A stretch of 13,937 nucleotides of DNA from a virus. The position numbers were made by a program, and so were the translations under genes. Of this stretch, positions 9,590-13,887 are shown piece after piece; positions within the stretch are counted from its first letter, which is position 1; each line of letters starts with the position of its first letter. A model generated the notes under the pieces. The model had not been told where the DNA came from and ran no database searches. It was given only the letters and a program-made list of their open reading frames with translations. The stretch is taken from the UHGV virus genome UHGV-0176194, one strand, 5' to 3'.

Positions 9590-10162
9590 ATGAATATGGT
9601 CGATTTATTTCGCGCCATGCTGCCGCCTGTCAGTTATGACCAGAACGGGAAATATATTTCCGCGGAGCTGACCGCCGAGGCTGACGTCATGGAGGCCGTG
9701 AAGGCATCAGCGGCAAGCGTTCTGGCACAAATCACCCCATTGCAGGCATCGATGACGCTGTCCGACTGGGAGCGCGTGTACGGCATTGTCCCCCGTGAAG
9801 GAGCAACACAACAGGAGCGGCGGCAGAACATCCTGGTCAGGATGGCCGCCACAGGTGGGCTGTCAATCCCTTACTTTAAGAGCCTTGCCGCCAGCCTGGG
9901 CTACACCATCACCATTACGGAGCCGCGAGCGTTCCGGGTGGGGATAAACCGCTGCGGCGACCGTCTGCTGATACCGGAAATCCGCTGGGTGTGGCAGGTC
10001 AATGTTATCGGGACAAAAACACCGGTCTACCGTTTCAGAACGGGGGCGTCGGCAACCGGCGAACCGCTGACGGCCTTTGGTGAATCCATTTTAGAAAACA
10101 CGTTTAAAGACCTTAAACCGGCTTTTACAGACTGTTATTTCACATATGAGGTGGAGGAATAA
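9590..10162 (+). CDS. Tail/baseplate protein (Mu gp48, YmfQ-like)
   Basis: 190-aa ORF between baseplate J and the tail fibre. N-terminus ([20 protein letters not shown]) recalls the YmfQ family. Stop overlaps the fibre ATG (TAATG). Confidence 0.7.
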
Positions 10163-11091
10163 TGCAGAATTTAATGCCTCCGGTGAATACGCCGGATAAG
10201 CTATTTCATGATGGTGACCCCACTCAGGGAATTGAGGGAACCATCGTTTACGCCGAATATATGAATAATCATCAGGCAGCAACGCGCGATTTGCAGCAGG
10301 AGGTGATTAACGTTCTTAAAGGGGTTGGCGTAACCCCGGACCCGAAAAAACAGAATCAACTGTTTGAGGCGCTGGCCTTATATGTCGGGAAAAAAGTTCC
10401 TGATGCATCATTAACGAATAAGGGTGTCGTTCAGCTCAGCAGCGCAATAAACAGTGATTCAGAAGAACTGGCTGCCACCCCAAAGGCAATAAAGTTGTTA
10501 GCAGAAAAAATCACTGATTTACAGGGTACAGCTTTGCCGGTTGGAACACCAATCCCGTGGCCATCTGATTCAGTGCCATCCGGTTATGCCTTAATGCAGG
10601 GGCAAAGTTTTGATAAAGGCTCTTACCCTAAACTTGCGGTTGCCTATCCGTCCGGGATTATTCCTGATATGCGCGGCTGGACAATCAAGGGTAAGCCTGC
10701 CAGTGGTCGTGCTGTATTGTCTCAGGAGCAGGACGGCATTAAATCACACGCCCACAGTGCCAGTGCGTCAAATACCGATTTGGGAACGAAAATAACCAGT
10801 TCGTTTGATTATGGTTCAAAATCGACAGATGCGGGTGGACTGCATAATCATGATGTCGGTCAGCAGGTATCTGTCAGTGCCGGTGGTGGCTCAACGGTAA
10901 ACATGAATAGCGGTGTAAGAAACCTTTACACGGGGCAGGCAGGAAACCATGCGCATGGCGTATATATCGGCCCTCATAATCATGCCGTCGCCATTGGTTC
11001 ACACGGTCACACCATTACTGTTAACGCTTCCGGTAACGCAGAAAATACCGTCAAGAACATCGCATTTAATTATATTGTGAGGCTTGCATAA
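10162..11091 (+). CDS. Tail fibre protein (Mu S / P2 H-type N-terminus; collar-like motif plus HxH repeats at the C-terminus)
   Basis: 309-aa ORF. N-terminal motif [21 protein letters not shown], the collar-like segment [44 protein letters not shown], and five HxH motifs (HAH, HNH, HAH, HNH, HGH) as in T4 gp37-type fibre tips. Confidence 0.85.
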
Positions 11092-11666
11092 TGACTTTTA
11101 AAATGAGTGATAAAGCACAGACCATTCGTGTATTTAATTTTCTCGAAGATACAAAAGAGTTTATCGGTAGTGGTGACTCTTATATACCACCTAAAACCGG
11201 TCTTCCTGCGAACTGTACGACTATAGCTCCGCCAGAAATTCCGGCAGGGTTTACAGCGATATTTAATACCACTGATTCTTCATGGCGACTGGTTGAAGAC
11301 CATCGGGGTAAAACCGTTTATTCAACAGAAACCGGAAATGCAGTCCCGATATCTGAACTGGGGGAACTTCCTGAAAATGTCACATTTATTGCACCAGACG
11401 GAGAATACCAGCGCTGGGATGGCAGCCAGTGGGTGACGGATGAAGAGGCGAAGCGTGATGCGCTGATTAATCAGGCAGCAGAGAAGAAAGCAGGCCTGCT
11501 TAAACAGATGGGGGAGCAAATCGCCGTTTTACAGGATGCCGTTGATTTTGGTGAAGCGACGCCTGAAGAACAGGAACAACTGACAGCCCTCAGGAAATTA
11601 CGAATAAAGTTAAATCGCATTCAACCGGAAAACGCGCCAGATATTGACTGGTCAGACTTTGAATAA
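11091..11666 (+). CDS. Tail fibre assembly protein (lambda Tfa / Mu U family)
   Basis: 191-aa ORF. N-terminal half (TIRVFNFLEDTKEFIGSGDSYIPPKTGLPANCTTIAPPEIPAGF...EDHRGKTVY) closely matches the conserved Tfa N-terminus as I recall it. Coupled to the fibre gene by TAATG overlap. Confidence 0.85.
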   Translation: MTFKMSDKAQTIRVFNFLEDTKEFIGSGDSYIPPKTGLPANCTTIAPPEIPAGFTAIFNTTDSSWRLVEDHRGKTVYSTETGNAVPISELGELPENVTFIAPDGEYQRWDGSQWVTDEEAKRDALINQAAEKKAGLLKQMGEQIAVLQDAVDFGEATPEEQEQLTALRKLRIKLNRIQPENAPDIDWSDFE

Positions 11667-11673
11667 ATCAGAC

Positions 11674-11696
11674 AGCCGCCGCAGGCGGCTTTTTAT
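11674..11696 (+). terminator. Rho-independent terminator
   Basis: AGCCGC / GCGGCT stem with a 5-nt loop (CGCAG), followed by TTTTTAT, starting 8 nt after the Tfa stop codon. Confidence 0.7.
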
Positions 11697-11710
11697 CATT
11701 CAGAGGTTTT

Positions 11711-13327
11711 ATGTCTGTATTAATCTCAGGTGTGCTTATTAATGGTGCCGGCGTTCCGATGGCGGAATGCAAAATTTATTTAGATGCACTGGTTAATACC
11801 AGTGAAGTGGTCACTGAATCATTCGCGGTTATTGAAACCGATGCGGCGGGACAGTATGCCTTTGAAGCGCAAAAAGGCAAATACACCGTTCACATCAAGC
11901 AAAAGAACGGCCCTAAGTGCTGCGTGGGTGATATTTCGGTTTACGACGACTCAAAGCCCGGCACACTGAACGACTTCCTGACCGCTCTCGATGAAGGCGA
12001 CCTGAAACCGGATGTTGTTAAGCGGTTCGAAGAACTGGTGGCGCAGGCGCAGCAGAGCGCGGAAGCGGCAGCGGAAAGCGAACAGGGAGCAGGGAAACAC
12101 GCAGCTGATGCAGAGCAGACAAAAAAAGACTGCAAGACACTTGCGGATAACGTACAGCAGAACGCAGAAGCCGTAGCGGCCAGCAAACAGCGCGTTGAAC
12201 AGCTGGCCTCAGAAGTTAATCTGAACGCCGGGCAGGTGCAGCAGGGTGTGCAGAGCGTTACTGATGCGGTAAAAAAGGCGCAGCAGGCAGCAAAGAATTC
12301 TGCTGACAGTGCCACGGACTCAAAAAACAGTGCTGACAACGCCGCCCTGAGCGAACAGAACGCACAAAAACACGCGCAGAAAGCTGAACAACATGAGCAG
12401 CAGACTAAACAATATGCGCAGGATGCAGCGACCGCCGCAGAATCAGCAGAGAACGCCAAAGGCGAAATTGACGAAATTCTGGATGGCGGCTATCTCAAGA
12501 TAAAAAACAACTTTCAGGAAATTGTTGATGCTGGCCCGTCAGCACTGGCTCAGGCCCAATGGAATTTACAGATTTCCGGGGTGAAAAATAAACAGGTAAT
12601 TGCCACCCCTTATACATGGCCATCCAGAACTGAGTATGAACAAAGGGTGCATCTGCCACTCGCCGGGGCTTACGGATTTGGCTACACATTTGAAGACCAA
12701 AGCCAGGGGCGAATAAATTTTAATGAGGGCCATACGGCGTCGTGGTGGTCACAGTGGGCGAAACCTGGTCGTTATTACGTCAGCGCCAGTGATAAAGAAT
12801 ACCTCGCACCTGAAGGAGACAGGTGGGGGATTGTTGATTTGCTGTGGCTTAATGGCAGCGGACATAACGATGCTTCGAAGGTTCTGAAAATACTGGCTTT
12901 TTATGACAATGACGGATACTTGCACATCGGCAAACGTATTGCTCAGAGCAACTCGACAATAAGCTGGCGTAAACTCGCATCACTGCTGGATGTCCGACAG
13001 ATGTTGTATTCGTTTAACAGTAATTATAACAATGAGTGGCGCGACCCGGCGCAGCCAGGAAGTTTAATACTGGCGGCATACCAGGGAACCGCTGACGGCG
13101 ACACAAATATTAAAGTATCCCGTGGTCAGACTTACCCCGGCTCACGACTTGCACCTGTGGCGATAGAGTGCCCGTTCACCCCGTCTGGTACGTATGCGGC
13201 AACACCGCGTTTTTACATCACTGGCTGTAAAAGTCATTGCCTGCCAGGTACGTATATATCGATGTCCGGAGCACCCACAACATACAGCGACCAGGCTTTT
13301 GTTGCGCTGTTCATGAGGATTGCATGA
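11711..13327 (+). CDS. Side tail fibre protein with lambda Stf-type N-terminal domain, Ala/Gln-rich shaft and an unassigned C-terminal domain
   Basis: 538-aa ORF with GAGG 7 nt upstream. N-terminus (GDISVYDDSKPGTLNDFLTALDEGD) matches the lambda Stf N-terminal region as recalled. Residues about 110-260 are a low-complexity A/Q/S/E/K shaft. Confidence 0.8.
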   Translation: MSVLISGVLINGAGVPMAECKIYLDALVNTSEVVTESFAVIETDAAGQYAFEAQKGKYTVHIKQKNGPKCCVGDISVYDDSKPGTLNDFLTALDEGDLKPDVVKRFEELVAQAQQSAEAAAESEQGAGKHAADAEQTKKDCKTLADNVQQNAEAVAASKQRVEQLASEVNLNAGQVQQGVQSVTDAVKKAQQAAKNSADSATDSKNSADNAALSEQNAQKHAQKAEQHEQQTKQYAQDAATAAESAENAKGEIDEILDGGYLKIKNNFQEIVDAGPSALAQAQWNLQISGVKNKQVIATPYTWPSRTEYEQRVHLPLAGAYGFGYTFEDQSQGRINFNEGHTASWWSQWAKPGRYYVSASDKEYLAPEGDRWGIVDLLWLNGSGHNDASKVLKILAFYDNDGYLHIGKRIAQSNSTISWRKLASLLDVRQMLYSFNSNYNNEWRDPAQPGSLILAAYQGTADGDTNIKVSRGQTYPGSRLAPVAIECPFTPSGTYAATPRFYITGCKSHCLPGTYISMSGAPTTYSDQAFVALFMRIA

Positions 13328-13887
13328 TGCAGATAAAAGAAATTACCAGTCCCCGCTACACCGAATCCGGTGCGATTGACTGCGACGTTCTGTTTGAGGA
13401 AATGGAAGCCCCTGTTCCCTACACTGCCACGCCGGACGATACAGCGAAAACCGGTCAGCAAATCTGGCAGGAACTGCAAAGCGGCAAATGGGGCGAGATT
13501 GCCCCGTTCACCGCATCACCTGAACTTATCGCAGCAGCAAAGGACGCCAAAAAACGGGAAATTGAGGCATGGCGCACAGAACAGGAAGCGCAGCCGTTCA
13601 CGTTCGAATGGAACGGTCGCACCTGGAACGCTGGCCCCGACTCAATGGCCCGTCTTTATCCTGCGGTAATGGCTGCAAAATCTGATACGGCACGAACCGC
13701 CCTTGCGTGGGGCGACGCTGATAATCAACAGGTGAAACTGTCGATGCCGGAACTGGAAGAACTGGCGGCAGCAATGGCGCAGGCACAGGCCGATCGCAAT
13801 GACGAGATTTATCAGCGTCAGCGGGAAATGAAGGAGGAACTGAATAACCTGGATGATTTACGTTCAATCAGAGCGATGACGATATAG
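13324..13887 (+). CDS. Putative tail fibre chaperone / assembly protein (family not recognised)
   Basis: 187-aa ORF starting at an ATG that overlaps the fibre TGA (ATGA). The position directly after a fibre gene implies a chaperone role. No Tfa-like N-terminal motif. The track ORF begins at 13237, but that start would overlap the fibre gene by 91 nt. Confidence 0.55.
   Translation: MMQIKEITSPRYTESGAIDCDVLFEEMEAPVPYTATPDDTAKTGQQIWQELQSGKWGEIAPFTASPELIAAAKDAKKREIEAWRTEQEAQPFTFEWNGRTWNAGPDSMARLYPAVMAAKSDTARTALAWGDADNQQVKLSMPELEELAAAMAQAQADRNDEIYQRQREMKEELNNLDDLRSIRAMTI

Follow-up and report, generated by a model that had tools for sequence, protein, structure and literature searches.

Two co-oriented tail fibre and chaperone cassettes at the end of a Mu-type tail operon follow the layout of phage phiP27

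Phage phiP27 was reportedly described by Recktenwald and Schmidt in 2002. In the record of this Stx2e phage (NC_003356) a single strand carries, in this order, the genes for a baseplate wedge (L53), a short fibre (L54), a Tfa chaperone (L55), a fibre with a lambda Stf-type N-terminal domain (Stf-N; L56) and a DUF4376 protein (L57), followed by the attachment site (att). In Ur-lambda, twelve StfN domains of four trimeric fibres form a collar at the junction of gpV and gpM, and the Stf fibre binds OmpC and speeds adsorption 10-30 fold, being non-essential (PMC12617516). In the Vibrio myophage XM1 the collar spike gp40 is bound to the neck as six trimers (PDB 7kjk; PMC10457771), and DUF4376 proteins are experimentally required tail-fibre chaperones of the Alteromonas phages V22 and A5 (PMC7289586, PMC10579305). 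The present study concerns the viral genome UHGV-0176194, a stretch of 13,937 nucleotides (nt) that is referred to below as the window and whose source element is, judged by its genes and its right end, a Mu-like transposable prophage of Escherichia. The tail operon of this element ends with two fibre and chaperone cassettes in tandem, and probably each cassette provides a receptor-binding module of its own, both modules being part of one contractile-tailed virion and the second fibre being an accessory.

The two cassettes and the end of the prophage

The window is occupied by a single unbroken tail operon of the Mu type on the + strand, and four fibre and chaperone genes close its coding part (Table 1). 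The original prediction described two complete co-oriented cassettes (10162-11666 and 11711-13887), and this description agrees with the four + strand open reading frames (ORFs), all of which were assigned to families in the database search; NCBIfam gave no informative match for them. The second fibre and chaperone had been called unrelated to the first, in line with the lack of similarity in BLASTP between the fibres (E 0.31) and between the chaperones (E 2.1). The stop codon of the gp48 wedge gene overlaps the start of fibre 1 by 1 nt. Overlaps of 1-4 nt, a sign of translational coupling, join gp48 to fibre 1, fibre 1 to Tfa and fibre 2 to the DUF4376 gene. Purifying selection acts on each of the four genes, the ratios of nonsynonymous to synonymous substitution rates (dN/dS) being 0.015-0.29.

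Fibre 2 is not exotic and belongs to the lambda Stf type. The family PF08400 ('prophage tail fibre N-terminal') covers its first 134 residues, its N-terminal domain is 43% identical to lambda StfN (PDB 9e7m; phmmer E 8e-17), and its AlphaFold2 (AF2) model superposes on 9e7m with a template modelling (TM) score of 0.93 and a root-mean-square deviation of 1.1 Å. The next best structural relative of this domain is that of XM1 gp40 (phmmer E 1.4e-3; Foldseek E 2.4e-6, TM 0.66). Matches in BFVD place the anchor domain at the head of fibres and spikes of several phage kinds that, by reading of the record names, span sipho-, podo- and myoviruses. In the AF2 monomer, residues 93-104 have low confidence (linker), long helices extend over 100-285, and a beta-rich part occupies ~330-538; this C-terminal domain has no gp37, HxH or Collar match. 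A weak phmmer match of fibre 2 to a designed Kelch propeller (7pvp) was judged spurious. A ribosome-binding site (GAGG) is located 6 nt upstream of the gene. Some NCBI records (P0055, P0071, P0072, P0091 and P0108) name PF08400 tail fibres 'shikimate transporter', a label that appears to be a propagated annotation error.

Across the Mu-type clade, residues 1-95 of fibre 2 show 96-99% identity at a synonymous divergence (dS) of ~0.2-0.3, and the identity of the shaft and C-domain goes from 90% down to unalignable; dN/dS is 0.015-0.26 for the whole fibre and 0.015-0.08 for the N-domain within this clade. A conserved N-domain with swapped distal parts has the appearance of a classic virion anchor with an exchangeable receptor-binding end. 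The suggestion that the module was recently captured is thus sustained for the distal half of fibre 2, which is often exchanged; it does not hold for the collar, which appears to be old and inherited with the backbone because of its high identity at that dS. Two ENA metagenome contigs, L121 and L122, share the Mu-type gene order and encode a fibre 2 that is 100% identical to that of the window. At 12184-12440, L121 shows a different 3' end of the DUF4376 gene and downstream DNA resembling the right end of phiP27, which suggests that phages of the Mu and phiP27 types have recombined here.

The second chaperone gene had been given a TTG start at 13237; this longer reading frame is an alternative, and the likely start is the ATG at 13324, which overlaps the stop codon of fibre 2 (ATGA). 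Its product, a DUF4376 protein, would be the putative chaperone of fibre 2 by analogy with the Alteromonas phages. Its dN/dS is 0.06-0.18, and a sequence search against the PDB gave no match.

Fibre 1 had been labelled Mu-type. The label is correct for its N-terminal ~110 residues, which align with Mu S from residue 4 (32% identity, E 1e-11), and incorrect for its tip, since residues 118-287 match the needle tip of T4 gp37 (PDB 2xgf, E 2.8e-68). A profile of the N-terminal part matches the gene that follows gp48 in 112 loci. The C-terminal part is variable among relatives, fibres of 250-340 amino acids (aa) are usual in the clade, and dN/dS is 0.15-0.29 for fibre 1 and 0.10-0.17 for its chaperone. 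The Prokaryotic Genome Annotation Pipeline (PGAP) calls fibre 1 homologues N-terminally truncated pseudogenes in three loci (L002 8822-9556, L003 6822-7559 and L004 6822-7556); these homologues are probably intact, given that the ORF starts at the gp48 stop codon and that the copy in the window aligns to Mu S from residue 4.

The right end of the prophage (attR) lies immediately after the second cassette. Transposase-binding-like repeats GGTCAATTCTGGGC and CCGCCCAGAA were found there by a motif scan and by comparison of insertion sites, and the terminal ...CGCGAAGTTACA falls 39 nt past the end of the window, ~90 nt after the stop codon of the DUF4376 gene. When six independent insertions were compared, homology was found to span the repeats GGTCAATTCTGGGC ... 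CCCAGAATTGCGCG ... CCCAGAAAAAAACGCGAAGTTACA and to end exactly there, at the terminus ...AAAAAAACGCGAAGTTACA (the stretch is visible in L003, 10213-10301); beyond it each insertion runs into different host DNA. The right-end motif is present also at the left end of the prophage of Z1323CEC0014, a close relative from E. coli. From these sequence comparisons attR is assigned to 13893-13937 plus the following 39 nt, and because attR comes after it, cassette 2 is the last coding unit of the prophage itself and not, as had been considered in the original prediction, the start of a separate element.

Table 1. Features of the window, with positions in nt unless amino acids are indicated
Feature	Position	Strand	Evidence and remarks
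Sheath	285-1706	+	Mu-type tail operon, contractile tail
Tape measure	2636-4909	+	Mu-type tail operon
DNA-circularisation protein	4909-6258	+	Mu-type tail operon
Baseplate proteins gp44-47	6242-9586	+	Mu-type tail operon
Baseplate wedge, Mu gp48 / YmfQ family	9590-10162	+	Pfam Phage_Mu_Gp48 3e-31; 28% identity to Mu gp48, E 1e-14
Fibre 1, 309 aa	10162-11091	+	Pfam Phage_fiber_2 and Collar; phrog_295 'tail fiber' 7e-120
Regions of fibre 1	aa 4-112; 83-113; 128-175; 118-287		Mu-S-type N-terminus; Phage_fiber_2; collar; gp37-type HxH tip
Chaperone 1 (Tfa/gpU type), 191 aa	11091-11666	+	Pfam Caudo_TAP 4e-33; phrog_105 8e-83
GC-rich hairpin, 7-bp stem, 3-nt loop, then TTTTTAT	11674-11697	+	Intrinsic-terminator-like; -12.8 kcal/mol, z -3.8
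Fibre 2, lambda Stf-type, 538 aa	11711-13327	+	PF08400 1e-47; full-length phrog_2636 1e-200
Regions of fibre 2	aa 1-95 (nt 11711-11995); ~100-285; ~330-538		Collar/anchor; helical shaft; beta-rich C-domain
DUF4376 protein, putative fibre 2 chaperone, 187 aa	13324-13887	+	PF14301 4e-17 (aa 70-175); phrog_1141 9e-88
Start of right end (attR)	13893-13937	+	Transposase-binding-like repeats; motif scan and insertion-site comparison

The genes upstream of the cassettes belong to Mu-type families (DNA_circ_N, Phage_Mu_Gp45, GP46, Baseplate_J and Phage_Mu_Gp48, by Pfam and precomputed families), and the window has the Mu-type tail and baseplate genes gp43-48 with an S-type fibre N-terminus. The traits of a transposable phage (transposases A and B, Mor and GemA, variable insertion sites) were read in close relatives; the window itself carries the first right-end repeats. 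The prophage of Z1323CEC0014 is visible as a whole and encodes a repressor, a Ner-like protein, a 2.1-kb transposase and an AAA+ B protein, together with GemA, Mor, lysis genes, terminase, a DUF935 portal, a gpT head protein, the tail and the four fibre and chaperone genes; its insertion point lies between rarD and yigF, probably within yigG. In L143, a locus that carries Stf-N, a 391-aa ORF with an HSDR_N (type I restriction) domain (2827-4002) lies within the tail cluster just upstream of Baseplate_J.

Distribution of the layout and search for a switching apparatus

The original prediction named a routine tandem layout in homologous phages as something that would refute it, and by gene order the layout is indeed routine among related prophages; it is the same in phiP27 and in Rac-SA53. 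The surveys were biased by the fetching of loci (pattern-seeded, at most 80 per scan) and by the use of home-made profiles. Similarity to the N-domain of fibre 2 was used to gather 87 Stf-N-type fibre ORFs, for which the typing of backbones was crude and left 40 loci unclassified. A Tfa gene ends 60 nt or less upstream of the Stf-N fibre in 63 of the 87, and the backbones in this survey are of the Mu type, the phiP27 type, the P2 type (J-I-H-G) and the 408-aa Baseplate_J type. In 13 to 16 further loci the Stf-N fibre is ~6 kb downstream of the Tfa gene; in L164 (8001-10567), the one of them whose intervening ORFs were inspected, ORFs for a sheath and a GPD-family protein (P2 gene D) stand in between, as in a P2-type cluster. 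The N-domains of 13 such loci, in which the fibre may follow gene D (cf. L164; L002 20040-20382), are 96% identical to one another, and a DUF4376 gene is found where the locus extends far enough. Subtypes of the Stf-N domain track the backbone, with a mean identity of 0.97 within the Mu-type group versus 0.45-0.67 to the others under this crude classification.

Among IMG/VR loci of close backbone anchored on gp48 and with enough downstream sequence, 11 of 13 have Tfa followed by the Stf-N fibre; the remaining two (L046, 5111-6223, and L048, 12310-13422; gp48 95% identical) have another ORF in that place. The Mu-type backbone is present in 58 of 5426 complete E. coli genomes, and its specific Stf-N N-domain in 25. 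The E. coli relatives UMNF18, STEC346, Z1323CEC0014 and B1172 share the layout, B1172 without a separate DUF4376 gene. We found no discussion of the second cassette in the literature consulted. The Klebsiella phage ST405-OXA48phi1.1 (L203), whose backbone is the closest among deposited phages (gp47 49% identical in aa), ends with a fibre, Tfa and a 662-aa SGNH/GDSL hydrolase (7589-9577); no Stf-N domain was found in this hydrolase, which probably represents another type of second receptor-binding protein at this place.

The original prediction stated that the layout is not that of the Mu G or e14 P segments, in which an invertase selects the fibre end, and asked whether an invertase or a retroelement was nearby. 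Neither was found in the window, and the statement stands. Profile searches revealed no reverse-strand Tfa or tip ORF, that is, no inverted fibre/Tfa copy, and no Gin-like ORF in the window; the same profiles did find inverted copies in L056-L064 and L078-L097, and they detected Gin-like recombinases in other loci. The gix-like site AAACCNNGGTTT, searched with one mismatch or less, has a single match (9441, inside gp47), equal to the chance expectation. Between 9500 and 13937 the inverted repeats are just short and imperfect, none above chance; as a positive control, the procedure recovers in L064 a gix-like pair of 20 nt with 95% complementarity. Given that attR begins 6 nt past the last stop codon, there is no room for an invertase before it, and an invertase acting in trans would find nothing to invert here. 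With inverted copy, crossover sites and invertase all missing from the window, a segment switched in the manner of Mu G, P1 C or e14 P was ruled out. The same was concluded for a diversity-generating retroelement: the window lacks a reverse transcriptase and any unassigned ORF of a size that could encode one, as well as any pair of direct repeats like a template repeat and a variable repeat, the repeats being of 34 nt at most, 70-80% identical and scattered.

A sister clade shows a different solution. The tail DNA of L058, L061 and L064 is ~90% identical to the window up to ~10317; these loci have no Stf-N cassette, and they carry instead a G-segment-like block with Tfa on the + strand followed by a second Tfa (Tfa') and a fibre tip on the - strand (L058 10573-13100, L064 10573-13041). 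A gix-like inverted repeat of 20 nt (10860-10879 / 12749-12768 in L064) brackets this block. The identical attR end comes directly after the invertible block, with no invertase in cis before it, so that inversion in the sister clade would need a recombinase in trans; more distant relatives of the Morganella type have the full Mu arrangement with Gin. One tail backbone thus seems to exist either with an invertible fibre end or with a constitutive second fibre, and cassette 2 is dispensable for tail building, because a clade with a ~90% identical backbone does without it.

Expression and likely roles of the two fibres

The stop codon of Tfa and the start codon of fibre 2 are separated by 44 nt that contain the terminator-like hairpin. 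The hairpin is kept in clade relatives, and in L005 and L044, which have a different Tfa module, a hairpin of other sequence occupies the same place (-16.5 kcal/mol). Since homology between Tfa variants picks up just past it, the hairpin seems to mark a module boundary as well. The guanine plus cytosine (GC) content, followed over 10000-11750, drops from ~0.57 in the baseplate genes to 0.45-0.50 over the genes of fibre 1 and Tfa before increasing once more in the shaft of fibre 2, a profile consistent with horizontally exchanged fibre modules. A consensus scan detected no sigma-70-like promoter in or near the gap, and promoter-like sites are as numerous in the region as in shuffled sequence; a promoter of its own for cassette 2 was ruled out on the basis of the empty scan. 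Read-through with partial termination at the hairpin, and hence a lower dose of fibre 2, is what we infer, and simultaneous or differential expression of the two fibres, as originally suggested, is plausible because a conserved terminator-like hairpin separates the cassettes.

The mechanism that we infer comprises co-assembly on the virion, an accessory role of fibre 2, attenuated transcription past the hairpin and a docking site on the particle. In it, fibre 1 would be the primary baseplate fibre, docked to the gp47/gp48 wedge through its Mu-S-type N-terminus and with its T4-gp37-type needle tip folded by Tfa. The N-terminal beta-sandwich of fibre 2 would anchor a trimer to the particle as a collar, and the coiled coil would project the C-terminal receptor-binding domain, folded with the help of the DUF4376 protein. 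The analogy with the Stf of Ur-lambda makes it probable that fibre 2 accelerates or broadens the initial reversible adsorption, while contraction would be triggered by fibre 1 and the baseplate. Both modules would be carried on the late tail transcript, of which the hairpin probably lets only a part pass, so that less fibre 2 is made. The accessory role is assigned to fibre 2 because the sister clade does without cassette 2 and because lambda Stf is dispensable. We also propose, at a confidence slightly short of even, that a collar fibre of the lambda Stf type is a true component of contractile tails of the Mu, phiP27 and P2 types, with the neck (as in XM1) or the rim of sheath or baseplate as docking site and with anchor subtypes co-adapted to each backbone.

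Several observations weigh against this mechanism. The site that the collar occupies in lambda, the junction of tube and tip, is covered by sheath and baseplate in a contractile tail; the docking site of fibre 2 cannot be the lambda one, and a neck-attached fibre whose shaft has ~185 residues would be too short to touch the cell surface at the same time as the baseplate. The AF2 model shows a single chain of a presumably trimeric fibre, with moderate confidence (predicted local distance difference test score 65), and for the C-domain fold Foldseek returned just N-domain-driven or low-probability matches in the PDB and BFVD. The DUF4376 protein is 88% identical to phiP27 L57 (L001 13265-13831), and the C-domains of the preceding fibres are just 26% identical; such a loose covariation is odd in a dedicated chaperone. 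In phiP27- and P2-type contexts the gap is 23-24 nt and has no hairpin, and attenuation is in consequence not a general feature. Finally, there is no close cultured phage for this backbone, the gp47 of the nearest deposited one being that of ST405-OXA48phi1.1 mentioned above.

Among the alternatives, the one that survives best is that cassette 2 is cargo at the prophage end, as a moron-like module, a reservoir of fibre modules recombining with lambdoid or other prophages of the same host, or a product serving another resident phage. Its placement after a terminator-like hairpin, as the last gene pair before attR, is typical of cargo, and the sister clade lacks it with a nearly identical tail. 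In addition, the distal parts of the fibre and the chaperone gene have high-identity DNA matches to phiP27, Rac-SA53 and SerU-LTIIb, and Stf-N is overwhelmingly siphoviral in deposited phages (just 4 of 287 records reach 60-80% identity to this domain, and with a single exception those listed are lambda-like). We nevertheless consider cargo unlikely: the anchor is specific to the backbone, and its conservation and low dN/dS would be hard to explain if it never docked here; the cassette is kept on three or more contractile backbones, always directly after the fibre/Tfa pair or gene D; and a good ribosome-binding site together with the lack of a separate promoter fits late co-transcription.

A second alternative, to which we give still less credit, is that fibre 1 is vestigial or purely structural and that fibre 2 is the sole determinant of host range. 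In favour of it, fibre 1 has a short sequence of 309 aa, homologues from several E. coli genomes bear the PGAP flag 'incomplete, missing N-terminus', and the BASEL authors suggest a mechanical role, rather than receptor recognition, for conserved gp37-like fibres in some phages. On the other hand, its ORF is complete from the gp48 stop codon, its length is standard in the clade, it has a full gp37-type tip and its own Tfa, and its dN/dS and variable C-terminal part are those expected of a receptor-binding protein. That cassette 2 begins a separate adjacent element, prophage or remnant, is very improbable: the hairpin and the GC shift at the junction, and a P2-like tail cluster that adjoins in UMNF18, would fit it, whereas the Mu-type right-end repeats and the terminal ...GTTACA come after cassette 2, host DNA begins there in the six insertions, and phiP27 and Rac-SA53 have this cassette within their mapped att sites. 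A switched or retroelement-diversified system in a 'locked' orientation, brought to mind by the block of the sister clade and the Gin of Morganella-type relatives, hardly deserves consideration in a window with no inverted copy, no gix-like site above chance, no recombinase or reverse transcriptase and no room before attR.

The region should be annotated as a Mu-like prophage's complete host-recognition end, neither as two elements nor as a broken G segment, and one backbone appears to have two solutions for host range, an invertible fibre segment or a constitutive second fibre of the lambda type. Cassettes with two receptor-binding proteins are natural donors for the engineering of phage or tailocin host range. 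The arrangement has been in the databases since phiP27, and our finding adds a member and an estimate of prevalence, not a new principle; it sharpens the question of the site at which a contractile tail could hold a collar domain of the lambda type. If Stf-type collars do sit on contractile tails, a portable second receptor-binding system would be widespread, occurring in about half of the E. coli prophages with this Mu-type backbone, and on this backbone it would be an evolutionary alternative to the invertible G segment.

Comparison with known systems

The window shares with Mu the gp44-48 baseplate, the S-type fibre N-terminus (32%), a chaperone of the Tfa family and the location at the right end of a transposable genome. 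It differs in that it has no inverted S'U', gix, gin or mom, and in that the tip of fibre 1 is of the gp37 type instead of the Mu S type; the place that the G(-) half, gin and mom have in Mu is taken here by the lambda-Stf-type fibre and the DUF4376 gene.

Like fibre 2, the Ur-lambda Stf has an N-terminal collar domain; it continues with a flexible linker and a coiled-coil shaft, for which the AF2 monomer of fibre 2 predicts a low-confidence stretch and long helices. Fibre 2 would, as in the two-receptor scheme of Ur-lambda, be an accessory beside the primary receptor-binding protein. In contrast, lambda is a siphovirus, and its Stf bears the gp37-type tip and the Tfa that are found here on fibre 1, whereas the C-domain of fibre 2 is unrelated and its putative chaperone is a DUF4376 protein in place of Tfa. 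Lambda Stf resembles a chimera of both fibres of the window, with the collar of fibre 2 and the gp37-type tip with Tfa of fibre 1. Two features of Stf separate it from fibre 2: the gp37 tip with Tfa, which fibre 2 does not have, and the docking site of a siphovirus, which a contractile tail would not offer. The name 'lambda Stf' should therefore not be given to fibre 2.

The spike gp40 of XM1 comes from the sole solved contractile-tailed phage with a homologous anchor domain, and its trimers are additional to the baseplate fibres, as those of fibre 2 would be; the similarity is distant (24% identity), the distal parts are unrelated, and gp40 attaches to the neck. In Alteromonas phage V22 a DUF4376 gene (gp27) lies immediately downstream of its fibre gene (gp26) (PMC7289586, PMC10579305), a resemblance at the level of the family domain alone, since the fibres are unrelated and the experiments concern the Alteromonas proteins.

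A nearer arrangement is that of Rac-SA53 (KU052037), where tail1-tail4 encode a fibre, a Tfa-like protein, an Stf-N fibre (N-domain 64% identical) and a DUF4376-like protein directly before att. Its backbone is of the 408-aa Baseplate_J type, integration is mediated by an integrase, and the Stf-N fibre has 1061 aa. Closest of all is L53-L57 of phiP27: the order wedge, short fibre, Caudo_TAP, PF08400 fibre and DUF4376, on one strand and at the genome end, is found in the window as well, and besides the DUF4376 protein (88%) the Stf-N domain is 62% identical. The two phages differ in that phiP27 is of the integrase type with a Mu-like tail and is not transposable, has distantly related backbone proteins, a gap of 23 nt without a hairpin between its cassettes, and a fibre C-domain with 26% identity. 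The layout of the window is therefore of the kind represented by phiP27.

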